A stretch of 63,942 nt of DNA, counting the filler, from Craspedostauros australis (Eukaryota): NCBI GenBank assembly GCA_030167865.1. It is 11 parts of 11 records of this genome, joined end to end, with 100 filler letters (N's around TTAATTAATTAA, not from the genome) between each part and the next. Parts side by side here need not be neighbours in the genome. Positions count along the whole stretch, not along the records: positions 49,567 to 50,787 come from JALAGF010002786.1; 10 more parts are not named here. One strand, 5' to 3'. Shown one piece after another: positions 1,866 through 63,772 of the stretch. The number at the start of each line of letters is the position of its first letter. The stretch's first letter is position 1. The notes under the pieces were generated by a model that saw nothing but the letters and a program-made list of their open reading frames with translations, was not told where the DNA came from and searched no databases. Both the position numbers and the translations under genes were made by a program.

Positions 1866-1982
1866 TAGCCCACGACACACAGAAGCAACACATATGCATC
1901 CGTTCCCGCTGCGTGCTGACACGTAGAATAAACGAGGCGGAATCAAAGCGCCCCCGGCGCATGACCTAACAGTTAGAATCCG

Positions 1983-2304
1983 TGTGATATATAGATATAT
2001 ATGTGCGATGCTTCCGAGGAGCGGCACAACAATGCACATGGCGTTCGGTGGGAATGTTCTTGGCGCGCAGTTTTCTTGGTCGGATGCAAATCGTCGTGTC
2101 CTTTGCATGTCGCATGCGACAACTGCAACAAACACGCAGACGAGCCACAACACTTCAACTTGTCTCCACCAACAACCACATTCAACTTGCTCGTCATCTT
2201 CCTCGTCATCATCACATTTGGTCCATTGTCGATCACCATCAGGGAACCACCCAGCGCACGACGAGTACGCGTATCAAAGCAAGCACACACACATATATCC
2301 CACA
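1983..2304. mobile_element. Solo-LTR-like insertion (about 322 bp)
   Basis: TG...CA ends with an imperfect terminal inverted repeat (TGTGATATAT ... ATATATCCCACA). No target-site duplication visible. Confidence 0.45.
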
Positions 2305-2639
2305 GGAGGGGACTTCTCTCGGGTACACGATTTAACACACTCCCATTGTGACTGTCACGCTGCAGGGATGAAGGTGGGTTTGCGCAACCCGAGCGTCTTT
2401 TCAATGAGGGTCTGCCCTGTACGAGGACTTGGGGATGGATCTTGTTGAAGATGGAGCAGAGATCAACAAGCAAATGCGCTCACATTTTGCGCAGCGCGTG
2501 TAGTCGATGAACCGCCGTACTTGAATTGTCATCATCATCATTGTCATCATCTCATATACTCATCAATCTCCTTCACAACTTTCATATTCATCATCACAAT
2601 CATCAATGCACTTCGCCACCACAGACCACACCCGCCAAC

Positions 2640-3951
2640 ATGAAGGACAAAGTCTGCATCATCGGCAGCGGCAACTGGGGTTCCGCCATCGCCAAGATCG
2701 TCGGCATCAACTGCGCCAACCAACCCGATCGCTTCCACCACGATGTCAACATGTGGGTCTACGAAGAATACGTCACAGATCCCATCACGCAACGCCCAAA
2801 TTGCAAACTCACCGACGTCATCAATCAGCATCATCACAACATCAAATATCTGCCCGGCATCAAGTTGCCGCACAACGTGCGTGCCGTCGCCGATCTGGCT
2901 TCGGCATGTCACGATGCGACGTTGCTTATCTTCGTGCTGCCGCATCAATTTTTGCCCAAGCTGTTGCCCATCATCCGCAAATCGGCGCATCCCAAGTGTC
3001 GTGGTGTGAGTTTGATCAAGGGGCTTGGTGAGTTGTGTGGTATGTGGTGCGTTGTTCTCTTTTGGTCATTGTGAATTGTTGACCGGAAACAGGAAGCGAG
3101 AGCGATGGACGCCCCTCCTGTCAACCCATACGCGCTTCTCATAATTCGTTCCCTCTCACATCTCGTCTTCATCTAACCTACCCACCCACACGAGCGCAGA
3201 CTTCGACACCAACACCGGCGAACCAATCCTCATCTCCAAAACCATCGAGCGCACCATGGGCAACAATTTCTCATGCGGCGTCCTCATGGGCGCCAACGTC
3301 GCCAACGAAGTTGCCAAGGGACAAATGTGCGAATCCACCTTGGCGTCCAACTTTGGTCACCGCGATGAATCGACGCGACTCGCTTTCCATTGTCCCGCCA
3401 TGAATTTCCACGTCCACCACATCCATGACGTCGCCGGCGCCGAGGTCTGCGGTGCCCTCAAGAACGTCATTGCCTTGGGCGCCGGCTTCATCGATGGCTG
3501 TCCCGATCTGGGCGGCAACACGAAGGCGGCCTTGCTGCGCGTCGGTCTGCTCGAGATGGCCAAATTCTGTCACACCTTCTTTGCGCATGTGCACGATACC
3601 ACATTCCTACAATCCTGTGGCATGGCCGATCTCATCACGACGTGTTACGGTGGCCGCAATCGCAAGTGCGCCGAGCAATTCGCAAGGCGACGGCAGTCGC
3701 CGCAAGCCGATTGTCGGGCCTTGTGGCAGCAGATTGAAACAGAAGTGTTGCGCGGTCAGAAATTGCAGGGGACGTTGACTACCGAAGAAGCCTACACTAT
3801 TCTGAAACGACGCAATCTGTTGCACGAGTTTCCGCTGATTCGGACCATTTATGAAATCGCTTTTGAAGCAAAACCCATTGCGGATATTGCGAAAGGCATC
3901 GTTGTGAGGACAGGGAAGATTCAGAAGCAACAATTGATGTCCAAGTTATAG
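2640..3951 (+). CDS. GPD1: NAD-dependent glycerol-3-phosphate dehydrogenase; exons 2640-3027 and 3200-3951
   Basis: [12 protein letters not shown]ossmann motif, [66 protein letters not shown] intron 3028-3199 with CTAAC branch point restores the frame (KGL-DFD). Confidence 0.95.
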
Positions 3952-12409: not shown

Positions 12410-13867
12410 GCGCGCTGGCAACATCGTCTTCGACGAAGCCCATTTTGCTTCCAGCACGCGCCCACCCGGGCCTCAGCTTCTCTACGATTTGGGGTTCCCA
12501 CGAGAGGTGGCTGAGGTTTCGTGCGAGCCTGTGCGGAAGAAGGCTGCGTACCCGGTGATACCAATCCAACGAGCTGTCATGCCCAAGCTGGCCTTCAGTG
12601 TGCCACTACCACTGGGAGACGTGCTTGATAGATCCCTATCGCACGCGTCGGCGGCTCGATGCTCCGTTACAGGCCAAGTGGATATCGTTCCTCTCGAACT
12701 CACCGACAATCCTTTTGGTTTCGAATTCGAGCAGGCGGTTGCTGTGAGCGGGAGCGATGATCTCCTTGGATTCGACTTCCAGTACGATTCCCAGCGTGAC
12801 CGGCTGCAGCTGATGTTCTGCCGCCAAGGGCAACCTGCCGCTCGAATCCCTCGATGGCGTTCGCGGCTCCGACATTCACACCTGATGTCCATCGACGGCG
12901 TACAGGTGTACAGTGTTGCTGGGGCCAAGGCAGTGATACAGCGGCTGCGGCAACGTCAAGCCACGAGTGTCGACTTCGTCTTCGCATTCGATGATGTCCG
13001 GAACGCGTTGTCACAACACGGTGTGCCGCAGATATACTTCGATCAAATGCGGCACATCCGGGATATCATCAACACCAGCACGCCCGTGGCACGCGCTACC
13101 AGCGTCACCAACGCTCCAGTCAAGCTCACGCGGCGAAAGCTCCTGCGTCAGGATGACTGGGACCAATGGCAGGCCGCGGAGTACAAGCAGCTGGATCAAT
13201 ACGATGCTCAGCAAATGTTTGGTGCACCGGTTGTGCCGCCTTCAAATGCTGCGGTGTTCAATTGGGTGTGGGTATACGTCATCAAGACCCATGAGAACAA
13301 TCGCAAGAAGGCGCGAGCGGTGTGCGATGGTTCGACCAGAGGCGGGCATGCAAGAGTCTTTGGGCATACATACGCGGCGACGCCGGATCTGACTGAGTTT
13401 CGTCTCCTCTTGGCGGTCGCTGCTGTCCGTGGACTCAAGGTGTATGGCTCCGATGTCACCAATGCTTTTGCGGAGGCGCCAGCAGGCAAGCAACGGTACT
13501 TCATGAACGTTGATGATCAGTACGCGTCCTGGTATCGTCACAAGTTTGGCACCGACATACCGCGAGGCCACGTCATCCCTGTCAACAAGAATTTGCAGGG
13601 CCATCCGGAGGCACCGCGACTATGGAGCAAGCACATCAATGGCATCCTCAAGGACTTGCGGTTCCTACCGACGACCCATGCTCCATGCCTCTACACAGGG
13701 TCCGTTGATGGTACTAAGGTGTTTGTGCTGCGACAGGTTGATGACTTTGCTGTGGCAGCGATCAACAAGACCGTCTTCGACAAGTTCTGCGACATGCTGG
13801 ACAAGCGGCTCTTCCAACCGATCACTCGTCAGGGTCTGATGGTGCACTACAATGGTCTGGACATTGC
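12410..13867 (+). mobile_element. Ty1/copia (CoDi-type) pol fragment: end of integrase region, linker, reverse transcriptase
   Basis: NIVFDEAHF, WQAAEYKQLDQY, WVWVYVIK, KKARAVCDGS, SDVTNAFAEA, KNLQGHPEAPRLW, PCLY, RQVDDFAVA. The whole contig is one open frame. Confidence 0.92.
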
Positions 13868-15181: not shown

Positions 15182-16486
15182 TCAATTGACTTCACTGTTG
15201 GCGGTCTTCTGCTTTGTCTCCAATGATCGAATCTTCTTCAACAGAGAGGACCGGTCCATGTCCTCTTCGATCATCACATCATCTCTTTTCTCCAACCATT
15301 CGTACAGCTCATCGATCCGCATTCGATCAAATTTGTCTCCAGTTGTTTTCGTCAAGTCCTCAAAACTTGCACACAGATGAATCTCCTTCATCAGCTCAAC
15401 TGAATCGATCAGTTGACCGACCTCACGTTGCTGCCACACTTTGGCAATATTCTTCCCCATCACCTTGATGCACTCTTCTTTCAGCACATAGCAACTGTGT
15501 GCATCTGCGAACAACAGAAGGTCGACGCATGAAGTCAGGCGGAGATACTTCACTGTCAGCTTCGTCTCCAGCAAGATCTTGAGCTTCCAACAACCGAAGC
15601 GGTTGGCGACGATCAGCAGATCTTGCAATTGACGTTGGGTCGTGTCATCTGTATGGAAGGATGTATCATCAGCGTAGATGAAACGAAGCATGAATCGGAA
15701 ATGGTCGGGGTCGATCGTTGGAAACGAGATGGACTTTCCGTCGCCATCTTCCTCCCCATCTTCCTCGTCGAAAGTTGTAGCTTCATCAATGAATGACCTC
15801 ATGGCTGGTGCTCCTGCTAACACGAACATGGTATTCGCCTTGATGCGTTGTTGCTGATCGCCGGTGCCAACAACGAAGGTGATGTCGGCGAGAGTTCCTG
15901 TACGAATCATCTTGAGCCGTTCTTTGTTGAAGCTCAGGGATGGAGTCCAGCGCTTGCGGATGTGTTGAAGGTGATCAAACTTGATGTGGACAGAGAGGGT
16001 GTCATCATCGAGTCCATGGTCGAGAACCTGTTTCATGGTCGTAACTTCGCCCCATCCCCAAGTGGTCTGTTCGCCCGCACGACGTGTTCTTTCTCCTGTG
16101 GTCCTGGTGATGCCTAACTTGGGAATCGAGGCTGTGCACTTCACAGAGTACTCTTCACCCAACAACCATGACGCTTTGTCGAGACGAAGAGACATCCCAA
16201 GATGATATCCTTGAGGTGAGTCAGAGCCTCCCCCTGACTGTGCGTTATCTTTTAAGAATACCAGTATCAACTTCCATCGAGCACCGCCGCACTCAAAGAC
16301 AGGAGAGCACGTGTACTTGTCACTCTTGTAGTTGATCTCAGAGAAGTGATGGAACTGCACGACAATCAAGTGTTTCTCATAGTCATCATCACAATCGTCG
16401 TCGTTGTTGTCGTCATTCTCGTTCTTTCCCTGCTTGTTGACGTGAACGACCTTCACGGTCTCGTTGTTGTTGAGTGGTTGAGACAT
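15182..16486 (-). CDS. MATH-BTB (SPOP/BPM-like) cullin-3 substrate adaptor
   Basis: MATH: SPVFECGGARWKLIL...WGWGE...LDDDTLSVHIKF. BTB: ADITFVVG..IKANTMFVLAGAP..IDPDHFRFMLRFIY..LLIVANRFGCWKLK. BACK-like: LLLFADAHSCYVLKEECI. Confidence 0.88.
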   Translation of the reverse strand: MSQPLNNNETVKVVHVNKQGKNENDDNNDDDCDDDYEKHLIVVQFHHFSEINYKSDKYTCSPVFECGGARWKLILVFLKDNAQSGGGSDSPQGYHLGMSLRLDKASWLLGEEYSVKCTASIPKLGITRTTGERTRRAGEQTTWGWGEVTTMKQVLDHGLDDDTLSVHIKFDHLQHIRKRWTPSLSFNKERLKMIRTGTLADITFVVGTGDQQQRIKANTMFVLAGAPAMRSFIDEATTFDEEDGEEDGDGKSISFPTIDPDHFRFMLRFIYADDTSFHTDDTTQRQLQDLLIVANRFGCWKLKILLETKLTVKYLRLTSCVDLLLFADAHSCYVLKEECIKVMGKNIAKVWQQREVGQLIDSVELMKEIHLCASFEDLTKTTGDKFDRMRIDELYEWLEKRDDVMIEEDMDRSSLLKKIRSLETKQKTANSEVN

Positions 16487-18250: not shown

Positions 18251-18322
18251 TCTCCTGTAGTGAAGTGGTTATCACTCTTGACTTTGAATCAAGCATCCTC
18301 GGTTCGAATCCGGGCAGGAGAA
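18251..18322 (+). tRNA. tRNA-Gln (anticodon TTG)
   Basis: Cloverleaf: acceptor TCTCCTG/CAGGAGA, D arm GTGA/TCAC, anticodon arm CTTGA-CTTTGAA-TCAAG, T arm CTCGG-TTCGAAT-CCGGG. No encoded CCA. Followed by an oligo-T Pol III terminator. Confidence 0.95.
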
Positions 18323-21636: not shown

Positions 21637-23865
21637 TCAGAATAGCACTGTAGGTACAGGGTCCATCTTCTCTCGAACCGCCGTCCATCCAGCCCTCGGA
21701 GGAAAGACGACGCAATGGTTGCTCACGGCCGCCGAATACAAATCGATGTTCCTACCGCTGCCTGCATGGCCATCCCTTGGTATGACCGACATGAACCACC
21801 GTCTCGTTCGGTTGCCGTCCGCAGCAGCCAGGCCACCCCGAAGGTCCGGGTAGGCCCAACCCGCACCAAAGTTGCGTGAAGTGCTGTTGTTGCCAGTTGC
21901 CGTGACCGTGTTCGAGGAGATTCCAGGAAGGCTGTCATCATCTCCGCGCTGGACTTTCCCCACGAAGCATTGGAAGATGCAAATCACCCCACCATGGTCC
22001 ATGCTCTCATCGGATCTTGGTGGCAAAATGGATGTGTACATCGGGACGCCCTGGTACAATCCATCCCTAAGATACACGCTGTTCACCTGAGACCAACCCG
22101 CATTCTGGACCAAACATCGCGGCGGTGGTTCGAACTTGGATTCCACCTGGTGCTTGTAAATGGTGGTCGTCGCGTTGGCTTTGCTGGACACGGACGCGGT
22201 CTTGGAGATGCATCGCAGCACCTCGATGTTTGCGTCGTTCGTGGAATAGAACAGCACTTCGAGGAGAACATGGGATGGGATCGTGTTCATGGCGTGCGCA
22301 AACGAAGCGCAGGACTGTCCGGACTTACGCAACGTCTTCCATTCGCTGTTGATGGCTTGGATGCAACGTCGCTGAAGGCAGGTGATGGGGGGAGCTGGAT
22401 AGGGTTGGCCGGGATTGTTCATGCCGCTGCTGCTTCCATCGTCGTCCATGTTCCTCAGCGCAGCGTCGAGGCTAAGCAAGTAGACCGCCGATGACGGCTC
22501 GAGGTACGGCAAAAGACTGACGTGCGTCAACCGATCAAAGATTTCTCGATTCCACGTCTCGGTATCTGTGTGCAGCTCAGTGCATTCAGCTCCATCGTGG
22601 GCGCTGGACGATTCATGAAGATTGGTTGGAGATGGCGCCGATGAAGCACTGTTTTGCGGAATGGCGATGTCCGATGTCTTCGCATCAGTTTGTTGATGAG
22701 GGAAATTGAGAGTTGCGTCAAGAACACCTTCGGACATCGACTTCACCAAGCGCCGGTGCTGCTCTCTCCCACATGCCGCAACAAGTTGGCTGGTATGCCA
22801 GCTAAATGTCCGCCGAAGTGGCCGCATCGAATCCTTCCGAACTGGAACGTCAGCAGCTGCACTTTCTTCGGTGAGATTGGGCAACTCTTCAGCGCCACGA
22901 CTTTCGGACCCATTCGTATCATATCTGTCATGGTGATCATGATCATCATCGTCCGCGATCCTGTTGGTCAGACCCACGTTAATCTGCAGCATCTTCCACA
23001 GAATGTGTGGATGCATGTGCTTGGCCGTCGACGGCTGCAGCTGCAGCAGATAATGCACGCAGGTATCCATGGCGACTTGCAAGAGCGGGATGGCCCGATG
23101 ATGATACGCGCAATCCAGGAACTGTGAGATCCTGGCCATGCTGACGTGCTTCTTGTAGTACGAATGCACCATCTGCCGCAACCTCGGTATGTCGAGGTAC
23201 TGCGCGAGGCTGTACAACGCCGTGGCAGTGTGCGGCGTGAGGGTGCAAGGGAATGGATTTTCGGTGGAGTAGACAAAGTCAAGGAGCGTCGGAAAGACGT
23301 CGGCGCAGTCCGATTCCAGCGCGATGCGCGACGTCTGCGATTGATTCTCTTGCATCGAGAGCTGGAATTGCGCGGCGAAGTACTCGGAATGTCTGGGACC
23401 AACTGCGAGGACGCTGCGATGGACGTGATACGTATCGATGGAACAGATAGCCTCGCGATTGCTGTGATGATTGATGTCAGTCTCCTCTTGCTGTTGATTT
23501 CCATTGCCGTCGTCCGCCGTATTGCTGCCAGCAACAGCGGTGACCGTCGTCGTTGTTGTTGCTGTCGCTGACACTGTTGTCTGATCGTGGCTCTGCCGAA
23601 CGACTTGGATGGTCCAATCACTGTAGCTTTCTGGAGGCAGCATTCTCCATGACAGTCTGTCAAAGCTCCCGATTCCAGGTTGCGTTTGCTGGACTTGCCC
23701 CTTGTCTCGAACTTCCTCTGACGACCGAGACTGCGGGTCGGAACTCGCGCTGTCACTGGCAGCAGCTGGCGGAGGATCAGCGCCTGGTCTGGCTGGGCCA
23801 TGGGAGGAAGCAGACGGCGATACGGCAGACCCCATCATGGATGGCGCAGATCCGAAGAGAGACAT
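21637..23865 (-). CDS. BTB/POZ-domain protein (diatom-type)
   Basis: LSWRMLPPESYSDWTIQV, YHVHRSVLAVGPRHSEYFAAQF, FPTLLDFVY, ATALYSLAQYLDIPRL; 742-aa ORF. Confidence 0.85.
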   Translation of the reverse strand: MSLFGSAPSMMGSAVSPSASSHGPARPGADPPPAAASDSASSDPQSRSSEEVRDKGQVQQTQPGIGSFDRLSWRMLPPESYSDWTIQVVRQSHDQTTVSATATTTTTVTAVAGSNTADDGNGNQQQEETDINHHSNREAICSIDTYHVHRSVLAVGPRHSEYFAAQFQLSMQENQSQTSRIALESDCADVFPTLLDFVYSTENPFPCTLTPHTATALYSLAQYLDIPRLRQMVHSYYKKHVSMARISQFLDCAYHHRAIPLLQVAMDTCVHYLLQLQPSTAKHMHPHILWKMLQINVGLTNRIADDDDHDHHDRYDTNGSESRGAEELPNLTEESAAADVPVRKDSMRPLRRTFSWHTSQLVAACGREQHRRLVKSMSEGVLDATLNFPHQQTDAKTSDIAIPQNSASSAPSPTNLHESSSAHDGAECTELHTDTETWNREIFDRLTHVSLLPYLEPSSAVYLLSLDAALRNMDDDGSSSGMNNPGQPYPAPPITCLQRRCIQAINSEWKTLRKSGQSCASFAHAMNTIPSHVLLEVLFYSTNDANIEVLRCISKTASVSSKANATTTIYKHQVESKFEPPPRCLVQNAGWSQVNSVYLRDGLYQGVPMYTSILPPRSDESMDHGGVICIFQCFVGKVQRGDDDSLPGISSNTVTATGNNSTSRNFGAGWAYPDLRGGLAAADGNRTRRWFMSVIPRDGHAGSGRNIDLYSAAVSNHCVVFPPRAGWTAVREKMDPVPTVLF

Positions 23866-32269: not shown

Positions 32270-35200
32270 TCACTTCTCTGACCCTTCCGTCAACACCGAG
32301 ACATCATCAGCATCGTCGTTATTGTTGTCGTTGTTGCTTTGTGCAGGTGCGCTCTTGTCGTCGATTGTGTCACCCGCAACGTACAGCATCCCATCGTCCC
32401 CCTCGACGATGCTCGTGCCTTGTCTCAAGGATTTCTGAAGCCATTTGCCATCGCGATCTCCAGTGCTTGTGCCGCTTTGTGCTGTCCGTCCTGTGACACT
32501 TGGCACGCCCGAATTTGCCGTGGAGCTCATCTTGCTGTGCATGTCCACATCCACAACCCTACTGCCACCACCGCCACCACCGCCACCACCACCTGTCAGC
32601 CGGAGCTGGATTTCACCATTGTCAGCATCAGCTTGCAGGTACTTCGACCTTCGATTGCGGATGTCTTCCACCTTGATGGTGCAGCCCCAGTCTTCGTACA
32701 ACTGCGCAGCCTGTGCCATGTACTTGCAGATAGATTCGTGAAGTGCTGTCTGCATAGGTTGGATGTTTGGACCACCCTTGTTGCGCGCGAGAATCTTCTT
32801 GGCTCGCAGCAGGTACTCGGCCAACTGTTCGCAAGCGATGGCGCAATAGTGGATCAACGAGGCCTTCTCAGCCATCGCGATGGCTATGCCGTATGCTTGC
32901 TCGGTGCGGCCGACGATGGTGGAGTTTGACGTGATCGGCTTCAGGGAAAGTCGCTCGGCCTTGAGCAACTGCAAGAGGCTCGTAGTGTTGCTTCCCTTCT
33001 TTGTGACGAGTTCTCGGGCGAGGCCGATCTGCTGCTTCAGGCTGTTCTTGTGCTTGGCCCTGCCAGTGGTTCGGAACAAGGCGGCTGATGTGAGGCCTTG
33101 TGCAAGCATGGTTGCCGATTCAGTGCCGTAGCCTTTCGCGATGACGGATACTTTGCGATACAGCTTGAGCATTCGCTGGGCGAGTTCGTGTCGCCGAAAA
33201 AGCATCGCCAGAAAAGGCAGACCTGAGTAGGTCGCTGCCAGCCGATGTGCTTCATCTTTGTTCGCCACATTCTGGGCGAGGTCATGGTCCACATTGCGTT
33301 CGAAGACTTCCCACTCGATCGGATCCATACCGGCGAAGTGCTTTGACATCATCAGCAATGCGATCGTGACCTCATTGCTGAATGACACATTGTAGATTGT
33401 GTACTGTTGAAGCGCATTTTCGAGAGATGTGACCAACGGCTGCAGCTTGTACCCGAAGTAGAATGCCAGCGTGTTGCTGAGCTGGAGGTCAGTCAGCCCC
33501 AGTCCGAAATCGCCGACCTCCATGGCAAGGGAATGACCTTTCTCCAAAGTCTTGATGCACTTGGAGAATGGTTCGGTGTGGGGGTACACCCAGCCTGCGG
33601 TGGTCCCGTAGACCACGCTGGTTTGTCGTTTCCCTCCGGCGCGCCCCAGCAGCTTGTGGGCGATCCCTGCGCATCGCAGCATCAGCGCACTTTCCTGATT
33701 CGTGACATCCCAGAACACGCTCAGCGTTGCAAATGCGCTGGGAGATTCGTCATCGATTCCGTACTTCATCGTCATTCGGACCCGCTTCAGGTTGTGGACC
33801 ATCCACGAGAGCCAGTTGCCGGAGAAAAATGATCGATAAATGAGTTCGTCGAGGAATTTCAATGCCATCGTCTTCTGGTGGTCCTCCTGCGCTGGAAGGT
33901 TCAAGATTTCTTCGTCGGTGTTGTTTCTCAAGAATGCCTTGATTTGCATCACGTCATTCACAACGTGGTAGAGATAGAACCGCTTCGGAGACTCGCCCAA
34001 TTTCTGGGCGACCGACAAGCTGATTGACATAGATTCAGCGGCCTTGCCTTCCCGTCCCAACGCGACCGCCATGGAGTGGTATGTGGGGAGCTTCTCATCA
34101 AATTCCTGCGCTCTTTCGATGATCTCATTCCCAGCGGAGTGCCCAAGCTCGAAGTTTCCCAACGAGAGTTCCACCTCCGATCGGCATTGGAACAGCGTGA
34201 GGCAGGTCTCGTAGTGTTCGGTCCATGGGTTGCGTACGCGTTGCAGCGCATCGGATGCTTTCTGCAGGTACGATGATGCTGACGCCAGAGCAGCCATCTG
34301 GAGTGCCTTCTGCCCCACCTCAAGGTTGAATGAGACAAGGAAGAGGTGGTCCTTCGTGCGTACGCTGTTGAGATGGTCAGCTGCAACGAATAGCAGGCTG
34401 TCGATGTCCTTGACTGAATGGTCATTTTGTCGTTGCTGCTGCTGTTGTGCTTGTTGGCGGTTGTGCTCTTCTTGGTCATCTTCTTGTGCAGGTGTTGCCT
34501 TGGACATTCGATACATGTCGAGTAGACAGCGACCGATCTGCAGACGAAGCTTGCTACGGATCTCACCGAATGGAATCAATCCATAGGCTGCCTGTTGCAC
34601 ACGGTCATGGGCGAAGTGGTATCGGCTCTCGCCAATGGAGTTGGTGACGAGGCCTCCCAGAAGAGCTTGGTCCAGGAGGACGCACAGTCGGTCAGATGTC
34701 CACGGCAATGGCCCTGACGATGGCAATGGCGGCGTCGCTGCTGCTTTGGTGCCGGATCCTTCTTCTTCGGACTCCATTTCAATGCCTCCATGATCATCGA
34801 TGTGCTGCAACACTACCTGCAGAACGTGCAGATCGAACGTCGAGCGGATGTATGCCGCGACTGACAGAACTCGCTGCAGATCATGGGGCAAGCTCCTGAG
34901 TTGCACTTCGATGATGGCCACGATATTGTCGCCGATGGGAAGCTCCTCACTACCACCATTGGTGGATTGGCTCAGATCCCATTCCCATCGATCCGAGATG
35001 CTGTTGTAGATGATAATGTTGCTTCTCTTGAGCTCCTCGACGGCCTGGAGAGTGAAGTAGACATTGCCGTGTGTCTTCTTGTGGATCTTGGATGCGAGGG
35101 CCTTGAGATCGTCGTCGTCATAAGATCGATGGAGAAGGCGAGAAAGCCATAAGGTGCAGTCTGGCAACGGTAAGGGACCAATGGTGACCTGCTCCAGGGT

Positions 35201-36460
35201 TCTCTCATTGCCCTCGTCGTTCCCTTTTTGTCCATTGGCATTGATGTTGGCGTTGGTACCTGCGCTGCTCTGATTCACCAAGCGATCCAGGAATGATCGT
35301 TGCAGGGGTGCCTCTGGCAACAGCTCCATGGCTTGATGATTGTGAGGATCGGTCTCCTGTCGGATCGCACCGAGCAACATGAAGTTGTGGAGGTCGGTGT
35401 CATTGAGCAACGATGCAAGAAGCTCCAGCCCAGCGGCAGAAGACCATTGCAGATCATCAAGGAAGAGGAAGACAGGTCGTTGTGGAGTGGAGACGGCCTT
35501 GATGAACTGGATGAAGATGTAGCAAAGTCTGTTCCATGCGCTCTTCGAGCTGCTCGGGGATTCCTTCTTCTTCGTGTGGCGGTTGTGGTATCCAATGTCT
35601 GTCATCGAATCGGACTTGCCATGATCACGTACGCTGCAGGTGGATACGGACGCAGTGTCCATGCCTGCATCTCCGGACTGCTGGTGCAGGTTGCTGCTGG
35701 ATATGTCCACCGGGGGGATTGAAGATGCCCCCGTAGAGGTGGAGAATAAGATGTCCAACGATGGAACCACTGCGATCAAAGCAGACACGGCCGAGTAGCT
35801 CTGCTTCGCAGCATCATTGCGGTTAGCATCATCCTTGTTTGGAAGAGAGAAGCCAGCGTCCGCACCTGCGGAGAACACGTCTTCTATTGCCTCTTGGATG
35901 CGTTGCAGCTCTTCGGAGGGCCCTTGTTTGAGCTGCGTCGCGAAGTCATCCAGCGCCTGGATGATGGCAGAGAATGGGTCCTTGCTTCCCGTGTACTCGT
36001 CGTACTTGCCTCGCAGCACGTAGCGGCAGCTGCAGGGGCGTTGTGCGTTTGCTTGCTCAGTCTGATGGCCGCCTTCGCAGCTGCAGTTCACTTGGTTCAA
36101 GAAGTGATCGATCAGCTGCGACTTTCCAGTGCCGCTTGTTCCCCAGACCAGAGCGGCTGGAATGACGGGCTTCCCCTTGTTGATGCGACGCCAGATCTTC
36201 CGCAGATGTTGCAATTCCGCGTCCCTTCCAAAGAAGGAGGTTGCTTTGGATGCTTTGGATGCTTTGGATGCTTTGGGGGAAGGTGAGGACGAGGGCGAGG
36301 GCGATGTGTTTGCAGACGTAGTCATCAACTCCTCTGTCACGGTAGGCTTCAACTCCGATACCGATGTACGGCCGGTCTCGGCTGTTCCATTTGGTTCAGA
36401 ATCCATTGACGCCGACGATTTGGTTGACAACGCGGGATCGTTCATCATGGTGATGACCAT
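32270..36460 (-). CDS. Large STAND-like P-loop ATPase (AAA_16-type) with C-terminal helical/TPR-like region
   Basis: FFGRDAEL, Walker A GTSGTGKS, GKYDE, Walker B FLFLDDLQW, KTHGNVYF, YHFAHDRVQQAAY, terminal LYEDWGCTIKV; single about 1400-aa exon. Confidence 0.85.
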   Translation of the reverse strand: MVITMMNDPALSTKSSASMDSEPNGTAETGRTSVSELKPTVTEELMTTSANTSPSPSSSPSPKASKASKASKATSFFGRDAELQHLRKIWRRINKGKPVIPAALVWGTSGTGKSQLIDHFLNQVNCSCEGGHQTEQANAQRPCSCRYVLRGKYDEYTGSKDPFSAIIQALDDFATQLKQGPSEELQRIQEAIEDVFSAGADAGFSLPNKDDANRNDAAKQSYSAVSALIAVVPSLDILFSTSTGASSIPPVDISSSNLHQQSGDAGMDTASVSTCSVRDHGKSDSMTDIGYHNRHTKKKESPSSSKSAWNRLCYIFIQFIKAVSTPQRPVFLFLDDLQWSSAAGLELLASLLNDTDLHNFMLLGAIRQETDPHNHQAMELLPEAPLQRSFLDRLVNQSSAGTNANINANGQKGNDEGNERTLEQVTIGPLPLPDCTLWLSRLLHRSYDDDDLKALASKIHKKTHGNVYFTLQAVEELKRSNIIIYNSISDRWEWDLSQSTNGGSEELPIGDNIVAIIEVQLRSLPHDLQRVLSVAAYIRSTFDLHVLQVVLQHIDDHGGIEMESEEEGSGTKAAATPPLPSSGPLPWTSDRLCVLLDQALLGGLVTNSIGESRYHFAHDRVQQAAYGLIPFGEIRSKLRLQIGRCLLDMYRMSKATPAQEDDQEEHNRQQAQQQQQRQNDHSVKDIDSLLFVAADHLNSVRTKDHLFLVSFNLEVGQKALQMAALASASSYLQKASDALQRVRNPWTEHYETCLTLFQCRSEVELSLGNFELGHSAGNEIIERAQEFDEKLPTYHSMAVALGREGKAAESMSISLSVAQKLGESPKRFYLYHVVNDVMQIKAFLRNNTDEEILNLPAQEDHQKTMALKFLDELIYRSFFSGNWLSWMVHNLKRVRMTMKYGIDDESPSAFATLSVFWDVTNQESALMLRCAGIAHKLLGRAGGKRQTSVVYGTTAGWVYPHTEPFSKCIKTLEKGHSLAMEVGDFGLGLTDLQLSNTLAFYFGYKLQPLVTSLENALQQYTIYNVSFSNEVTIALLMMSKHFAGMDPIEWEVFERNVDHDLAQNVANKDEAHRLAATYSGLPFLAMLFRRHELAQRMLKLYRKVSVIAKGYGTESATMLAQGLTSAALFRTTGRAKHKNSLKQQIGLARELVTKKGSNTTSLLQLLKAERLSLKPITSNSTIVGRTEQAYGIAIAMAEKASLIHYCAIACEQLAEYLLRAKKILARNKGGPNIQPMQTALHESICKYMAQAAQLYEDWGCTIKVEDIRNRRSKYLQADADNGEIQLRLTGGGGGGGGGGSRVVDVDMHSKMSSTANSGVPSVTGRTAQSGTSTGDRDGKWLQKSLRQGTSIVEGDDGMLYVAGDTIDDKSAPAQSNNDNNNDDADDVSVLTEGSEK

Positions 36461-38269
36461 AGTCTTTTGATTTGTCGGTCTGACGGTCTGGTGGTCTGAT
36501 GGTCTGTTACGATGAATCAACTCTCAGAGCTGTACGATGCAAGTAAAAGCGTCGGTGCAATCGTGCGGTGCAATGGTGGCTGCACGACAGGAGAGATTGC
36601 AAATTATGCAATGATGTTGGTTGGCTGCTTGAAGAGATGGACATTGGGAGCATCGAGGGCGCGGTTGGAATGTCTGGAAAGATGATGTCGATTCTCACTT
36701 GCACGCTGGGATTGTTGAGGGTACTCGTACAGTATTGTGACTCTGGGTCCCCTCATGCGATGCAATCCAAATTCGCGACAGCTGCGAGGTTGCGGCATCG
36801 TTGGTGCGCCCAAAGCGGCCTCGCGCGATCGTGCTTCACCTCTGCCCATTAAGAACTATTTGCTCCATGCACTTCGTGTTATTGTTCCGCTTTTTCCTAC
36901 CTTTGGTCGTGGAGTGTGATCCGTGTGTGGGATCACATGGAGATTGCGTGTGTCCAGCGTGATCTCTTCCAACGAAGACATGTTCGCGTCATGTTGTTCA
37001 AGCGCGGAGAGTGTTGTTGACACCCCCTGTCCCTTGAAGCAAGGCAGTGCGTCGTTGGCCCCTGCTAACCTCCGCGAAAGAAGGAATGGTGGCGGTCATT
37101 TTGAATCCTCATCGCCGAAGCAAACAATGAGACGTGGATAATGTGCCAGTTTGGAGGAGTGCACAGCCTCATTGACGGGCGCCCCCATCCAAGGGGCCTT
37201 CCACACCACCCTTCGACTCCATCAAGGGTGCGTGACTGTTGCATCGGTTTGTGGGACCAAGGAACAGCCGCATTCAGGCGACTACGAATAGGCCGTACCA
37301 TAGGTAGGGCATGGGAGCAAAGAGTTTTTTTGTTGATGCTGTTGAATCTCTACCATGCGTTGGTGAAATCCTGCCTTCACAGAGAATGAACATTACGGAG
37401 TGCACATGCAGACTACTACTGGTCCTCCTTTCATCCTCGCTTGAATGGTAATAGCGCAAGGAGGGGTACCCTTTTCGATCCGAAAGCCGCCCGCGAGCCA
37501 ACCCTTGTCCGACCTCAAACAGCGGGAACAACGGCCATGACGTCGAGGCAGCTCTGCGTAGATCGTAATCGTCACGTTGCTGTTGCCAATCTGTACGACT
37601 ACTGCAGCCATCAGCAACATCACAACACAGAATGCTCGTGCCTCGAATAGTGTTGCTGGTGGCATCGATGCAAAAAAAGTCTTCTGATCTCCGGACCGCA
37701 ACAACGCAAAAAGAAGTCGCGAATGAAGAACTATTGGAGTGCAGACGGCGGAAATGAGGTCAAGGTGAATCGAATGGGGCCTGCCGCACAAAGCAAGGAA
37801 TGACCGCGACCACAAGAACGAAGAACAAAACACGCCGCAGTGGCCACAACAACAACAACAGGATGAGGAACAAGCAAACATTGGAGGGCCGCAGAATCCC
37901 AAAGCACTACGACAACTGGAACACACCACATCATTCACCGATACGCGCCACATTCCAATCAGAACACCTAAAGAGCACAAAACGACCCTGGGTGGCAACT
38001 TGTGATCTTGTTTGGTTTTGACGGAACAATAACTCTCGCGAAACATGTTTGCAACAGAAAGCCAGTTTCGATGCGACAGTATCTGATATCCATAATGATT
38101 TCGGCCTGGTACTGGCCTACGTGGCTTGTCTCCCCAGGCAAATTGGAGGTGCAATTTGTCTCCACAGGCNNNNNNNNNNNNNNNNNNNNNNNNNNNNNNN
38201 NNNNNNNNNNNNNTTAATTAATTAANNNNNNNNNNNNNNNNNNNNNNNNNNNNNNNNNNNNNNNNNNNN

Positions 38270-49466: not shown

Positions 49467-49629
49467 NNNNNNNNNNNNNNNNNNNNNNNNNNNNNNNNNN
49501 NNNNNNNNNNTTAATTAATTAANNNNNNNNNNNNNNNNNNNNNNNNNNNNNNNNNNNNNNNNNNNNATACACAAACATCGATATCTCTTCCATAGGCAGC
49601 TCCGACCACAGACATCCTCGACAGCCAAT

Positions 49630-49683
49630 CCAACGTCTATCGTCCAACGTCCAACGTCCAACGTCTATCGTCCAACGTCCAGC
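49630..49683. repeat. (CGTCCAA)n 7-bp tandem repeat upstream of the ankyrin gene
   Basis: About 7 imperfect CGTCCAA/CGTCTAT units. Confidence 0.8.
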
Positions 49684-49712
49684 AACCATCGACCATCCAC
49701 CATACTCTAAAA

Positions 49713-50787
49713 ATGCCGAGTGTTACCAACCAACAACTCATTGATGCTGCCATAGCAGGTGACTTGTCAGTGTTGAAGGAGTGGAAGAGGCAGAACAAGA
49801 CGCAGAATGAAGGAGATGGTGTCAACTTCAAAACCCACAATGGCAACATTCTCCTTCATTACGCATGCTCCGCCGGCTGCCTGGAGTGTGTCAAGTACCT
49901 CATCAGATCATGTGAGGCAAACATCCATTGCAAAAACAACGATGGTTGCACTCCCCTTCATCATGCATGCATAAACGGCTGCCTGGAGTGTGTCAAGTAC
50001 CTCATCGAATCATGTGAGGCGGACATCAACTGCAAAGACAACTCTGGTTGGACTCCCCTTCATCATGCATGCATAAACGGCCAGCTGGAGTGTGCCAAGT
50101 ACCTCATCGAATCATGTGAGGCAGACATCAACTGCAAAACCAACAAGGGCAACACTCCCCTTCATCTGGCATGCTCCGCCGGCTGCCTGGAGTGTGTGAA
50201 GTACCTCATCAGATCATGTGAGGCAAACATCCATTGCAAAAACAACGATGGTTACACTCCCCTTCATCGGGCATGCATCAACGGCCACCTGGAGTGTGTC
50301 AAGTACCTCATCGAATCATGTGAGGCGGACATCAACTGCAAAGACAAATATGGTTACACTCCCCTTCATTGGGCATGCTACAACGGCCACCTGGAGTGTG
50401 CCAAGTACCTCATCGAATCATGTGAGGCGGACATCAACTGCAAAAGCAACGATGGTTCCACTCCCCTTCATGATGCATGCTCCAAAGGCCAGCTGGAGTG
50501 TGTTGTGTACCTCGTTGCATCAGCCAATGCCGATACCGACATTGAAAACAACAACAACAAAACGCCCCTCGATGTGATCGATGCAACACTTCAAATCAAG
50601 ATAAACCGTCTCACACATCTGAGTCGCTGCAACTCACAACTGCAGCAGCAGTTGAAAGAGAATGAGCAGGAGAACGAACAACTGAAACAGCAGTTGAAAT
50701 GGAAGGAGGAAGAGAAGAAGCAGAAGGAGCAAGAAAACGAACAACTGAAACGGCAGTTGGAACGGAAGGAGGAAGAGAAGACACAGA
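49713..50787 (+). CDS. Ankyrin-repeat protein with 7 near-identical 34-aa repeats and a C-terminal coiled-coil repeat; 3'-truncated by the contig end
   Basis: GxTPLHxACxxGxLECxKYLIxSCEAxIxCK repeats with an exact 102-nt period from 49842, followed by an EQENEQLKxQL 21-aa repeat. Confidence 0.93.
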
Positions 50788-50887
50788 NNNNNNNNNNNNN
50801 NNNNNNNNNNNNNNNNNNNNNNNNNNNNNNNTTAATTAATTAANNNNNNNNNNNNNNNNNNNNNNNNNNNNNNNNNNNNNNNNNNNN

Positions 50888-57723: not shown

Positions 57724-57823
57724 NNNNNNNNNNNNNNNNNNNNNNNNNNNNNNNNNNNNNNNNNNNNTTAATTAATTAANNNNNNNNNNNNNNNNNNNNN
57801 NNNNNNNNNNNNNNNNNNNNNNN

Positions 57824-57909
57824 CGTCCAAGTGCGTATGAGAGAATAACGGGTGAACGATGCACATATACACATACATCTTGACATATACTCACATGTAC
57901 ATCTCGATA
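57824..57909 (-). mobile_element. LTR start (same family as 17192-17271) inserted into the non-LTR ORF
   Basis: Reverse complement TATCGAGATGTACATGTGAGTATATGTCAAGATG...CATACGCACT matches 17192-17271. Confidence 0.75.
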
Positions 57910-60900
57910 AATCCTTACATGTTGTAGCATGGACCTGGCAAGTCCTCCCTGCTTGTCAATGTGCTGCGCAAGCGTCTGGGCCGGCTGCAGCCGCAGCACC
58001 TGTCCCAGGGAGAGTACTACCGTGGTTCCTCGATGGTGCAGCACGTCTGCAACAGCATCCCCTGGCAGCTTGCGGCATCGATACTCGGCGTGGCGAATTG
58101 GCTGCAGCTGCTGCCCCCGCTGGTGCCGCTGGAGCTGGTCCACGGAGTTCTGCTGTATACTGAACCGACGCAGCACCTGCCAGGGCCCCAACGGTTTGGC
58201 CAGCATTGCCCCAGGTCGATCTTTTGCCAGCAGGACCAGAACCAGGTTGTCCCAAGCTTCCCAGGATGCTTTTGACGGGGGCACCGCGTTTGGCCATGGC
58301 TTGTCATCTTCTTCGCGCGAAGCCGGGACATGGCGAAGCACATTGGGATGGATGCTTGTTCCGGCGGCGTCGCATATATCGGATAGCCAGAGGGCCTGGA
58401 GGTGCACTCGGACTGCGTTGGCCTTGCGAAGCTCCGCGGCATCATTTGTGGCTCCAATGAACAGCTCCATGATTGGAATGTCTCCGACGCGCGGAAGTGT
58501 GATTCCCGGCGACGCCTGAACCATGCGCAGCTTCGATTGCTCCATCATTGCAAAGGTATGCGACCACCACGTGCTGTGCGTCCATTTCCTCCACACGTGA
58601 AGGTGCTGCTGGAACCGATTTGGAATCCCCGACCATAATTGGAGCTGCAAGAGGGCCGCCCGTAGCAGCTTGCCCGAGGTCGTGTCTGCCTCAAAGTGGC
58701 GCCACACCATTTCCAGGTGCGCCTTGCACTGTAGCGTGTACAGGTGGGGGATGCCCATTCCATTAAGTCGCTTGGGGCCATGTACATACTGCCTTGCGAT
58801 GGTGCGCGCGACACCCATGTGGGGAAGCGCCGTCATGAGCGCTGGCCGCATAACGCTCTTGCACTGGGCCTGCGTGAGCGTGGTTGCCGCCAAGGTGTAC
58901 GTAAGTGCCGGCCATAGTACTGCCTTGAGAGCAATCTCCGTGTCCTGTTTCGATATCCGAGCTGTCTGGATATGGTCTGCCCAGGCCGAGGCTTTCTGAC
59001 AAAGGTACTCCGCATGGTCTCTCTGGTACCCATCCCTGCGAGACATCATTCCGAGGTACTTGCTGGCCTCATCGACGGCCTTGCGCTGCAGGGCTTGGCT
59101 GCTGCCACCTGAGAGCTGCATGCGAATCGCCCCAGGTTCCGATCTCTTGTCGTATTGCCACCGACTGTTGTCCCACTTGAACCGCACCAACTGCCAGAAG
59201 CTTTTCTCTGGCGCAAGGCACCCGCCCGATGCCGCCAGCATGCTCTCCCAGGAGGACACCACTTTCTGGAATTCGCGGGCTTGCGATAGAGCATTCGGGC
59301 TGTCGAGCGAATGAATAAGATTCGTGTCGTCGACATACGCGAAACATACCACAGAGTGCTGATGCCGCTTTGTCTCGCCGAAGCGGAACCCGTAGCCTTT
59401 GGACCGCATGCGGTCGATCAGCGCAGAGCTAATCATGAGCCAGCCTGTTGGGGCTGCCCCCAAACCTTGCACCAAGCCTTGAATTGGCCTGGGGAGGCCT
59501 TCACCGGAGTAACTGGCGTTCGAAATGCCGGACCCCATGCTGATACGGTGCTCCATCCGCTGGATCGTTCGCAGCACACTGTCGATTGGTTGCTTGGGAA
59601 CCCCTTGGCGGCGCATGGCCATACCAAACGCTGGATGCGAGATCCTGTCGTAGCACCCTTTAGCATCGTTGGAGCATATGGCGGCAGCCTTGCCTGAGAT
59701 ACGCATGATGTCGTTGGTCATGCACACGTTGAGGAGGACTTCCTGGGCCGAATGTTGGCATCGGCTGCCATACTGATCCGCCGCGATAGTGCCGTTGGCC
59801 TCGGCGTGGCTCCGTGCAGATCGGCCGAGCTGCCTAGTGTTCATATTGAAATCCCCTTCCATTAGCCCAATGGTTCGTGTCTTGGATACGGAGAGGTTGC
59901 CTGGCTGTTTGCGTAGCTGTATGTCGGTGCATTGCTGCCACCGCTTCAAGCTGTACCCGGTGCAATACGGGACAGATCGCATGATGGCATCAATTGCCGC
60001 CAGCTGCGGGAGTCTGACGTTCGCTTTCCAGCATCCAAAGTGAAGGCCTGACAGTCCTGAAGAAGTGCGCTCTTTGATCTTCCCCCATCCCTCGATGTGG
60101 CTTTCCGTCGTGATCACGGTGTCTGCGGCGGCCCACGGCGAGGCATTGGATGGCTGGCCAAGGGCTCGGAGCAGCTCGGCTGTTCCTGGTTGCACCTGTG
60201 ATGGCACCAGACCCCGTACTACGGCATCGGCCGCTGCTGACGTGCCAAACTTGCCCAGCAGACCTCCCAACCCTGGCTGACCAAGCTCGGATGACCATGC
60301 CTGCTGGTACTTTGCGATGTTGGTAGCACAGCACGCGCCTGTCACTTCCTCCGCCTTCGTCAGAACTTGCCCTCTACCTCCTGGCCCATCATGCACTACC
60401 ATGCTGACCTGGGAGTCGAGGGTGGTGCCCGATAGTGCGTGGCGAATGCGCCGGTAGGTCGCCCGAGTTTCCTCTCGTTCTGACAGCTGCTGCCTGTGTT
60501 TGCCTGGGTCGCCGCCGCTGTGGTGTACGAAGTCTTCGTTGGATCTGAGGAAGTCCGTTCTGTGCTGGGCTGCTGACTTCTTCTCCTCCTTGAGGTGCGC
60601 CCAGGCCTTATTTCGTGCCGCTGTCATGTCGGCAATGCTCATGGATCGGGTGCGCACGTGGTCCAGACCTGCTTTCGTCTTGAGCTTGTCGATCGTGGAG
60701 CCTTTGATCTTGTGGCCGGACCTACGTCGGATAGACTCTGTCCAAAATTGGTGGGCTTTTTGGATTTGACCAACCAGAGGAGAGTACGGCACTTTGCCCA
60801 TGCGGACTTTCCGGCAGGACTTTTCAGCCCGTAACATAGCCTTCGCTCTGCCTGCATCGATACTCTCGATGGCCTTCACTTGCTCTGCCGTCAGCGGCGC

Positions 60901-61824
60901 CCCAGTTACTCCTGCCTCGAGTTCACGGGCTCTCTCCAACAGATTGAGCCGGCTTGCTGCCTCTGCATATGACTCCAGGTACCGGTTGACGGTAGCCGGG
61001 CATTGAAGCTGGAGCCGCCTGCCACGGAACGGCTGCGACGGGCTCCGGCCTCGCCCCATGAGTTGCTGCGTCGAGTAGTCCACCCAAACCATGCGATGAT
61101 CCCACCGGCCATAGGGGGTAGCACCAGACTGGGTGGCAACCGCCTCCTGGGTGGACCAGACTCCGTCGATCTGAATGCTGCTGCGATTGCGGATGTGAGT
61201 GGCTGCTGGCGTGGGGTGTTGTGTGGAGAGTACCTCCGACAACCCCTCATCGGCGAGCATGGAGCTCATGCGTGATTTCCTCACGTCCATGTTCACATCT
61301 CCTCCCAATATGACCGTTTCTCCGGCTTGGCGCCACTGGTGGACTTGGCATTGCAGCTCTTGGATGTGAAGGTCCATGGGTTCGCCGTCCAGACCGGCTG
61401 CGGCTGCGTTGGAAGCCTGCTGATTGTACACGGTGCCCGGCGTCTTGGTAGATTTGTTGGCCACGTACGTCGCCACAAGTTGGATCTTGATGGGGCCTTT
61501 GCCCTGTAGAAGCACACTGACCCACCTGCCCCAGTTGTGCACGTCCCTCTCACTGTGCAAGACGCGTCCTCTGGAGTCGCCCTTGATAAGGATTGCGGTC
61601 CCTCCCCATTGGCGCACTCGAAGGGGGTTGACTTGGTTGTGCGACGTGATGGTTCGGGATTGGGGTATGTGCCGTTGGACCAGCTCGTGTAGCCTTTTGT
61701 GTCTGGGCACTTTGCTCCAGCAGATCCCCACCTCTGTCATCAGCAGGATGTCGACGTTGTGCTTGCTTATGGTCTCCCAGAGGTCCTGATATTTTGGGTC
61801 TGTGTCGTCGGTGGAAAGGCCGCC
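57910..61824 (-). mobile_element. Non-LTR retrotransposon ORF (APE endonuclease + reverse transcriptase; Ambal-like), truncated at both ends by LTR sequences
   Basis: APE: DILLMTEVG, GGTAI, GRWV, ILGGDVN, IDGVW, DHRMVWVD. RT: QYGSR, SNDAKGCYDRI, QGLVQGLG, FAYVDDT, LAPEKSFW, KYLG. About 1300 uninterrupted codons. Confidence 0.93.
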
Positions 61825-62463
61825 TGTCAGGAATCGGGTGTCATGAAACGCGTGATTGCCGCACCTCCCAAGAGTGAGAAGACAAGTGCCATAAAACACT
61901 ATATTACCGCACCTCCCACTATGACATTGTGAACGCAAAAATGTGAGGTACATGACAGGGCGAATGGTATCCTGAGACGAATGGTGAATGGCAAGTGTGG
62001 ATCGGATGATGACTGTGAAGGGTAATGCAATCATCCAATACACAGTTGCATGTCACACGGGGCTGGAATGATGCACTCGTGACCACCATCAGGTACAAGC
62101 GAATACAGCCCTCATGTAATGACGAACAAGGAACCGAGGAGTCGGAATATCCCATTACCACGAAGTACAAAAAGGATCGTGAGAGAACCCTCCGGTGATA
62201 ATGGATGAAGCTGGTAACGAACCAGCGAAGTGAATGTGATAAGGGATGGCTGCCTCAACACGAGACATCGTGTGAGAAATTGTGAGAACAACGGTTCAAC
62301 CGTGAGAACAGTTGTGTCTCTTGTGTTTTGTGAAAAACTCGAAAGATGACGATCCGACCGAGTGAATCGAATCGGTGAAGCCTGTGAATCAACCATGTCT
62401 ACGATGATGAATCTATCAGAGGAAAGACAGGGTGAATTCACGAGATGGGCAACCTTGCAAGAT
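61825..62463 (+). mobile_element. Long LTR (5' part) of a copia element inserted into the APE domain of the non-LTR element
   Basis: Starts TGTCAGGAATCGGG at the point where APE similarity stops. Its last 18 nt (TGGGCAACCTTGCAAGAT) match the reverse complement of 63925-63942, which lies in the LTR upstream of gag. Confidence 0.65.
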
Positions 62464-62563: not shown

Positions 62564-63700
62564 GATTTCGACGAAGTCTCCGTCCGCGATGATGAGCGCC
62601 ATATCATCCATCGCGTCGTCGCCATCCATTGCCACATTGGCACTTTCGGCGTCTTTCATCGCTGCTTTCAGCTTAAAGCATTGAAGGATCTTGTGCCCTG
62701 CCTTTCCGCAGTAGTTGCACTTGCCGTCGAACTGCACCTTCTTGAGTCCGCCTTTGGCGTTGGTGTTGTGGCCTTGTTTCTTGGCACCACCGCCTCTCTT
62801 GTTGTTGTTGCCTCCCTTGGCTGGCGCACGACAGTCCGCCTTCTTGTGCCCGTAGGCGCCACAGTTGCGACAGTTTCCCTTGAACTGGCCAACTCCAATC
62901 AGTGCGAACTCTTCGCTACCGTTGTTGCCTGCGCGCTTATAACCATGTTTGAGATGGTGGCGGTCGTAGGTGAGGCTCACGGCTTNNNNNNNNNNNNNNN
63001 NNNNNNNNNNNNNNNNNNNNNNNAGGAACTTGAGTTCGAGCAACTTCACATCCATCTCGTACTCGCGGCCGAGTGCGTTGAGGACGAGCATGTTGAATTG
63101 CTCCACATCGACGATCACCTTCAGGTCGATCAGCCGGTTTCGAAGGACCTCCATGTCCGTCAGGAAGAGATCCGGATTCTCTCCCTTCTTCAGCCGCATC
63201 CCGTTGAGCTCTGATAGCAACTTTGCCTTCATAGGCGCAGTTCGCTGCTCATAGATGCGCTCAAGAGCCACCCAAGCTGCACGAGGGTCTCCTCCCCCGT
63301 TCAGCATGCTCTTGCATCCCCACACCGCCTCGAAGGCAACTTTGCCTTCCTTCGAATCATGGCTNNNNGCCAAGGTCAGTTCTTCGTAGGCGTACTTCGC
63401 CATCGCTTCCTTGTACTCGGCCAGGTCCGCAGCGCTTGGCTTGGCGCTTGCCTTGCCGCTCGCTTTGGTGCCGGGTTTGAGCTTGGTACCTGCCTCGGTC
63501 TTGATGGTTGGGACCAGGCCTTTGGTAACCTCAGAAGGAGCTTTCACTTCCACCTCAGAGTAGGCCATCAAGAACATGTCTCTGTAACCCTTGCGGTTAG
63601 CACGAGAGAGGAACTTGGCCAGCCAGAACTTCCAGTTCTCCTTCTTGCCGTCGAAGTAGACCACCGGGAGGCGGTCAGTTTTGGCGTTGATGGTACTCAT
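62564..63700 (-). mobile_element. Ty1/copia gag (UBN2-like capsid region + two CCHC zinc knuckles), truncated
   Basis: FDGKKENWKFWLAKF, AWVALERIYE, VLNALGREYE, CRNCGAYGHKKADC, CNYCGKAGHKILQC. Confidence 0.9.
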
Positions 63701-63772
63701 GATGTTGATGGTGGATGATGGCTTGATGGTGCGGGGTGAAACGTAGGATTTCAATCTAAACGTTTCGAAACG

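Follow-up and report, generated by a model that had tools for sequence, protein, structure and literature searches.

A diatom ankyrin array with a near-invariant scaffold and hypervariable groove codons: a candidate member of a diversifying binder family

The gene described here, from the diatom Craspedostauros australis (GenBank assembly GCA_030167865.1), encodes an array of ankyrin repeats whose closest known kind is the high-internal-conservation (HiC) repeats of the ANK, TPR and WD classes in fungal NOD-like receptors (NLRs). HiC repeats of fungal NLRs share an identity of 85% or more across stretches of 100 residues or longer (Dyrka et al. 2014, PMC4986451). In that paper, five positions on the concave face of HiC ANK repeats are reported to be under positive selection, shuffling is described both within and between genes, and HiC repeats make up 0.4-1.2% of the repeats of plants, animals and dikarya. 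For the Podospora het-d/het-e family, which carries repeats of this kind, short-read assembly is described as unreliable (PMC12222747, in excerpt). A second point of comparison is engineered. The design section on the ANK-N5C library (PMC4308713) gives the entropy of each position over natural ankyrin repeats; positions 2, 3, 5, 10 and 13 were highest and hence randomised, followed by positions 12, 14, 16, 22, 25, 26 and 30. In the ANK-N5C crystal structures described there, the randomised positions of the beta-turn and of helix 1 together make up a single unbroken binding surface. The diatom gene lies in a window of 63,942 nucleotides (the whole stretch of DNA analysed, filler included), which consists of contigs strung together with N44-TTAATTAATTAA-N44 spacers and in which the array is carried by contig JALAGF010002786.1. 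An original prediction from the sequence had described a homogenised ankyrin framework with hypervariable binding-surface codons and proposed a diversified receptor family; the observation was confirmed, and its interpretation is partly supported.

The array shares with the fungal HiC ANK repeats near-identical units of 33-34 residues, a small number of hypervariable positions on the concave face, and the difficulty of assembly from short reads. It differs from them in its block identity of 84.3% at the amino acid level, just under the 85% cut-off, and in its architecture, an N-terminal array followed by a long helix, without a NOD domain before the repeats. Moreover, the host is a diatom and not a fungus. 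The evolutionary signal is real, and the diatom lineage is new for a pattern already described in fungi. With the DARPins and ANK-N5C the array has in common a consensus-like scaffold and a concentration of variation at positions 2, 3, 5, 10, 13 and 14. Unlike DARPins, it is natural, has a 34-residue unit with an invariant Lys at position 33, and contains four scaffold Cys per unit as well as Cys at variable positions, a residue that the designed libraries exclude (PMC4308713, in the part on library design). It adds a natural, 34-residue, Cys-rich ankyrin scaffold to the examples that can inform binder design.

Most likely, the gene is 3'-truncated and belongs to a family of cytosolic, helical-tailed binders that diversifies fast. 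We assign a probability of roughly 0.6 to the fuller reading, in which the family is multicopy and diversifying, with a variable groove and a homogenised scaffold kept by selection, duplication and exchange, and with a helical tail. In such a family the stacked repeats would form the usual ankyrin solenoid, and its concave face, to which helix 1 contributes its exposed side and the turn that precedes it, would carry residues that vary from repeat to repeat and among paralogues. The binding partner, most likely a protein, would then differ for each member of the family, and the helical tail may tether or oligomerise the binder. Diversity would arise from duplication of units and unit blocks (the 306-bp block in this gene) and from exchange of units between family copies, with selection keeping or favouring differing groove residues and leaving the scaffold unchanged even at silent sites.

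Architecture of the gene and its repeats

The features of the contig are as follows.

49567..50787, plus strand: whole contig of 1221 bp, with runs of N at 49467-49566 and 50788-50887 on either side
49629..49695, plus strand: upstream tandem repeat of the TCCAACG type, with periods of 7, 14 and 21 bp (Tandem Repeats Finder)
49713..50787, plus strand: open reading frame (ORF) of at least 358 residues, its 3' end open at the contig end (translation)
49713..49820, plus strand: N-terminal cap, residues 1-36, two helices making a degenerate ankyrin-like repeat (model helices 6-15 and 18-29)
49821..50534, plus strand: seven ankyrin units of 102 bp (34 residues) (Tandem Repeats Finder, translation, Pfam)
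49821, 49923, 50025, 50127, 50229, 50331 and 50433, plus strand: starts of the seven units, in frame with the ORF from 49713
50535..50582, plus strand: partial eighth repeat forming the C-cap, residues 275-290 (...KTPLDVIDA) (translation; short helix 285-288 in the model)
50583..50786, plus strand: long single helix, residues 291-357, rich in Q, E and K and cut by the contig end (model)

An in-frame stop lies 39 codons upstream of the ATG at 49713, with no other ATG between the two, and the relative P0121, a transcript fragment discussed below, begins at the same Met and has a similar N-terminus. The TCCAACG-type repeat stops 18 nt short of this start codon.

The units are ankyrin repeats, as had been recognised from the sequence. 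Ank, Ank_2 and Ank_4 of Pfam match at E values of 1e-71 to 1e-77 (Ank, 2.4e-75), PF00023 reaches 244.6 bits over seven stretches against a cut-off of 21.1, and Ank_2, Ank_3, Ank_4 and Ank_5 also pass. The closest solved structure by sequence is the designed DARPin 6mol_A (E 1.5e-115), in the alignment with which one extra residue after helix 2 explains the 34-residue unit. The AlphaFold2 model, built on a 30-row alignment, has a mean pLDDT of 95.3 and a pTM of 0.84, and contains a helix pair in each of the seven units (unit codons 11-17 form helix 1 and codons 21-30 form helix 2, for example residues 81-87 and 91-100). As modelled, the protein is an ankyrin array with an N-cap, seven 34-residue repeats, a C-cap and a long helical tail. 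TALE repeats, which are 33-35 residues long, read DNA bases through two variable residues. The earlier suggestion of a TALE-like repeat code is not supported, since the repeats are ankyrin by both Pfam and fold and about eight positions vary, not two.

The tail, which had been expected to be a coiled coil able to oligomerise, is a long and confident helix in the model (residues 291-357, block-mean pLDDT 81-97). It contains a tandem duplication of 63 bp (21 residues, …QENEQLKxQLxxKEEEK…) at 50659-50781 found by Tandem Repeats Finder; the tail, too, grows by internal duplication. The prediction of self-association for two copies of the tail (residues 275-358) gave a score of 0.15 against a mark of 0.32, which speaks neither for nor against oligomerisation. 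A Pfam search of the ORF returned ankyrin families alone, with no NACHT, NB-ARC, TIR, HET or other signalling domain. No signal-like segment is seen by eye at the N-terminus, so the protein is taken to be cytosolic.

Tandem Repeats Finder resolves 49822-50503 both as 6.7 copies of a 102-bp period (83% matches) and as 2.2 copies of a 306-bp period (90% matches). This is the same 714-bp, seven-unit array that had been placed at 49842..50555, with the register shifted by 21 nt to the in-frame span 49821-50534. Units 1-3 and units 4-6 are identical at 278 of 306 nucleotides (90.8%) and at 86 of 102 residues (84.3%), which agrees with the proposed duplication of the first block as the second; unit 7 is the most divergent of the seven. 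Between repeats 2 and 5, six nucleotides differ and one of the changes is silent (ATA/ATC), as had been stated, but the replacements number three (C>Y, H>R and C>H, together five nucleotides) and not five. The longest exact internal repeats measure 60 and 55 nt. All six occurrences of the framework motif in the window fall in the array (0 expected), and a hidden Markov model made from the seven units found no further copy when run against the window translated in all six frames.

The framework is nearly invariant even at silent sites, in accordance with the original prediction. Its three Leu positions use CTT, CTG and CTC, each codon being the same in all seven units, and its four Cys positions use TGC, TGC, TGT and TGT, each the same in at least six of seven. 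The fixation of synonymous codons per position implies that the sameness of the scaffold is due to descent or conversion, not to codon preference. Each 34-residue unit has four invariant Cys, and further Cys occur at variable positions, so that the array is 12.6% Cys; the 490 ankyrin proteins retrieved have a median of 3.05%. The overall Cys content of the query protein (8.7%) is equalled among these 490 proteins by P0121 only. Of the four scaffold Cys, two fall at ankyrin positions 12 and 19 and a third within the closing loop, in its Asn-Ala stretch (numbering from the DARPin alignment); these three positions usually hold small hydrophobic residues. The scaffold Cys are probably core residues, rather than disulfide or metal sites.

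Position and rate of change of the variable codons

With the G of GxTPLH set as ankyrin position 4 from the DARPin alignment, the variable unit codons 5, 6, 7, 9, 14, 17, 18 and 20 correspond to ankyrin positions 1, 2, 3, 5, 10, 13, 14 and 16. They map to the turn before helix 1, helix 1 and the inter-helix turn of the AlphaFold2 model, and Y, W, H, R, N and D are prominent among the residues that they encode. Translation reproduces the residues listed in the original prediction: N, C, W, N, Y, Y and S after G; Y, H, H, L, R, W and D after (TP)LH (codons tac, cat, cat, ctg, cgg, tgg and gat); SA, IN, IN, SA, IN, YN and SK after AC; C, C, Q, C, H, H and Q after the second G; and THN, NND, DNS, TNK, NND, DKY and SND in the turn triad. 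The placement of these codons largely at the sites randomised in DARPins holds as well, with all five ANK-N5C positions included (PMC4308713, in the library description). The sites that vary here are the ordinary variable, ligand-facing sites of ankyrin repeats, which by itself is not unusual.

The rate at which they change is a separate matter. The block duplication provides three independent unit pairs (1-4, 2-5 and 3-6), which were compared by Nei-Gojobori counting and differ at 28 nucleotides, 22 of them in the eight variable codons. Nineteen of the 28 fall in positions 2, 3, 5, 10 and 13, defined a priori, where 4.1 would be expected (binomial p 2.7e-10). The observed clustering, with 24 differences in the top eight codons and eight in a single codon, was reached in none of 100,000 trials in which 28 differences were placed uniformly; in codon 14, which encodes the residue that follows TPLH (position 10), eight of nine site comparisons differ. 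The proportion of replacement differences (pN) is 0.42 at the five positions, compared with a silent proportion (pS) of 0.036 (Fisher p 4e-6) for the remaining 29 codons, and it also exceeds the pS of 0.080 over all codons (p 7e-5). These five sites accumulated replacements 5 to 12 times faster than the background accumulated silent changes. Measured by the HiC criterion, change at the binding-face positions is faster than neutral, with a pN of 0.42 against a background pS of 0.036-0.080, the pS inside the codons themselves being 0.42. A presumed DARPin position set (2, 3, 5, 13, 14 and 33) was replaced by the printed ANK-N5C set; in the independent pairs the presumed set gives a weak signal (11 of 28 differences, p 0.006), with a replacement-to-silent rate ratio (dN/dS) of about 1.1.

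Part of this pattern would be produced by an ordinary ankyrin scaffold protein that underwent recent tandem duplication and then surface drift under relaxed constraint, with no repertoire function, an account that we consider rather improbable. It draws on the variable positions being those that vary generally in ankyrins (PMC4308713, in its entropy analysis), on the dN/dS of about 1.2 for the whole array and 1.1 for the presumed DARPin positions, and on a framework pN close to the framework pS (0.034 vs 0.036), a comparison made from very few changes. The whole-array and framework figures also weigh against a diversifying binder family, as does the pS of 0.42 within the five variable codons, which brings the classical per-site dN/dS to about 1; a standard site test might not yield an omega above 1. 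Relaxed constraint accounts for the place of the changes, since these positions are variable in all ankyrins, though not for their speed. Neutral drift cannot outrun the silent rate, and hence relaxed constraint alone fails to explain the rate at the five positions (p 7e-5 to 4e-6). The eight of nine differing comparisons in one codon likewise speak against an ordinary scaffold protein, as do the hundreds of related contig pieces in a public sequencing run described below. The high silent estimate in the five codons arises because whole codons were replaced.

The pattern fits whole-codon turnover, brought about either by repeated selection-driven change or by the exchange of stretches between units or paralogues. 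Exchanged stretches would show at the variable codons only, because the scaffolds of units and paralogues are identical. That a dedicated mutator, for example a diversity-generating retroelement, writes the variable codons is scarcely credible. Reverse-transcriptase ORFs are present elsewhere in the window, but they sit on other contigs and are retrotransposon genes of the copia and RVT_1 types, and no template copy lies within the window. Moreover, all three codon positions vary (TAC, CAT, CTG, CGG, TGG, GAT), which does not match changes at template adenines only.

Family members, relatives and possible function

Contigs of public sequencing run X1 (30,610 records), which contains 34% of the words sampled from the target contig, were aligned to the 1.2-kb contig at 80% likeness or more. 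A total of 863 contig pieces match the 1.2 kb: 105 at 99% likeness or above, 144 at 95-99%, 330 at 90-95% and 284 below 90%. Two further runs, X2 and X3, yielded no piece on this contig. In the non-repeat N-terminus, an alternative letter is found in 9 to 20 different contigs at each of four listed sites, and the upstream region and the tail are also variant among the contigs of the run. Contigs of a de Bruijn graph share no words, which implies at least about 20 distinct N-terminal versions, whether paralogues, alleles or both. The gene is thus a member of a multicopy family in this run, as had been proposed from its short contig. Among 40 of the 265 variant sites, 11 of the 21 best-supported sites in the array fall in the eight variable codons, and most of the remaining ones belong to codons 2, 24, 29 and 34, scaffold codons that are dimorphic.

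Several points must be set against the proposed binder family. Within the array the piece counts are inflated at 80% likeness, because 284 pieces align to more than one unit, and the molecule type of the run (RNA or DNA) is a guess of the tool. The analysis covers one array, and the order of its units rests on one short contig with no record of run X1 spanning it. The ligand is hypothetical, and Pfam finds no effector domain in the ORF, whose 3' end is open.

Variants of the upstream TCCAACG-type repeat are present among the covering contigs of the run, and the loose end of one contig at 49648 continues straight into a context resembling that of the start codon, as if paralogues differed in the copy number of this repeat.

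Some contig joints skip or return about one to three units (102, 205, 219, 301 and 310 nt), others correspond to no whole number of units, and some carry other letters in the turn region. These joints suit copies with different unit orders; contigs of this type cannot separate alleles, paralogues and graph artefacts. The order in the 1.2-kb contig might itself be a path through a collapsed repeat graph, in which case the units would be real but their number and order would be those of no real gene. We hold such an assembly chimera to be on the unlikely side. Both ends of the short contig lie in sequence common to paralogues, the longest exact internal repeats reach 60 and 55 nt, and short-read assemblies are described as omitting or creating such repeats (PMC12222747, in excerpt). 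In addition, no record of the run spans the contig, and the bin 49854-49894 is uncovered, which carries no evidential weight alone. Opposed to a chimera are the ORF, which is intact and in frame across all units, the regular 306-bp block structure and the 105 pieces at 99% likeness or above. A chimera would, moreover, leave the hypervariable pattern unexplained, and this pattern would persist at the level of the family.

The only close protein relative found is P0121, which came from the shorter proteins searched and is a 138-residue transcript fragment of a raphid diatom (MMETSP1442) with 68% identity, in which the scaffold is kept and the differences lie at the same variable positions. Proteins of near length are generic ankyrin proteins with at most 48% identity among the 120 matches listed, and the best match among longer proteins does not exceed 52%. 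When residues 1-110 were compared with 1.84 billion representatives, giant ankyrin arrays dominated, and none exceeded 49% identity among the 150 listed. A single close relative from three protein length classes and 1.84 billion representatives is a further point against the family. The gene also serves as a caution: short-read assemblies of diatoms break or collapse genes of this kind, and protein databases contain almost none of them. In searches of the open-access literature, main texts only, no description of a diatom family of this sort was found; the Seminavis genome paper does not mention ankyrin in its main text, and two other diatom papers contain general mentions only.

Two Ankyrin-Roc GTPase proteins, P0424 and P0004, are similar to the array in the 34-residue unit, in the GxTPLHxAC...KYLIE...C...CK scaffold and in the possession of highly similar repeats with variable groove residues, and they reach up to 52% identity to the query. 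They differ in that a P-loop GTPase (Pfam PF08477 and PF01926) directly follows their array, whereas the helical tail follows it in the protein described here. Judging from identity (at most 52%, vs 68% for P0121), they do not belong to the same family. Their Cys-loop scaffold (…ACxxGHLxxAKYLIExxxCxPxCK…) looks like another internally conserved array, joined to a signalling GTPase.

A 23-nt scaffold pattern had one match among metagenome contigs, L001, which was rejected as a chance match because, in place of any ankyrin ORF, it encodes a topoisomerase-II-like protein (1345-3414, minus strand). L001 seems to come either from a large DNA virus or from an AT-rich eukaryote. A viral origin of the array is not supported either: of 15 matches to the scaffold pattern in viral contigs, none was confirmed by tblastn.

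How diatoms, which are major primary producers, recognise viruses, bacteria and parasites is poorly understood. Multicopy binders with a fixed scaffold and fast-changing contact residues are the kind of gene set that fungi use for recognition, and this gene is a concrete candidate for such a set in diatoms. By analogy with the ANK sensors of fungal NLRs, the family might constitute an intracellular repertoire of non-self or pathogen receptors that lacks the NOD module. With no NACHT or NB-ARC N-terminal to the repeats (a stop, then 36 residues), the array is not classed as an NLR. In its full form this proposal envisages a large, expressed, NOD-less repertoire of intracellular ankyrin binders in diatoms, produced by selection and repeat shuffling and sensing viral, bacterial or parasite proteins or mating and self cues; we regard it as improbable and put it forward only tentatively. 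Signalling might then proceed via a C-terminal part beyond the contig or via oligomerisation of the tail. The signature shared with the fungal HiC ANK repeats (conserved repeat DNA, hypervariable concave face, multicopy status) is consistent with such receptors, and so is the abundance of Y, W, H, R, N and D among the variable residues. Nevertheless, the ORF has no signalling domain by Pfam, only 36 of its residues precede the array and its 3' end is open. Other roles have been proposed for diatom ankyrin proteins, for example that of dAnk in silica morphogenesis; dAnk proteins, compared here by description only, are cytosolic ankyrin proteins whose proposed partners are the cytosolic portions of membrane proteins, and the description mentions neither homogeneous repeats nor hypervariable positions (PMC11151724, in excerpt). 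If true, the receptor proposal would mean that a major algal lineage has a family of immune-type receptors with a new architecture.

Other features of the window

The remaining contigs of the window contain long intron-free ORFs, including a class-3 lipase and EF-hands, and have a G+C content of about 0.44-0.59. The ORF with an AAA_16 domain may encode a STAND-type NTPase and would be relevant to a search for receptor-like genes here. The features are as follows.

32270-36520, minus strand: ORF of 1416 residues with an AAA_16 ATPase domain (E 4e-27), on another contig
15182-16486 and 21637-23865, both minus strand: two ORFs with BTB/POZ domains, on different contigs
74-1026, plus strand: piggyBac-type transposase (DDE_Tnp_1_7)
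12489-13867, plus strand: copia-type reverse transcriptase (RVT_2)
57772-62043, minus strand: ORF of 1423 residues with RVT_1
62564-63754, minus strand: copia-type gag
18251-18322, plus strand: tRNA gene, the sole Rfam match in the window

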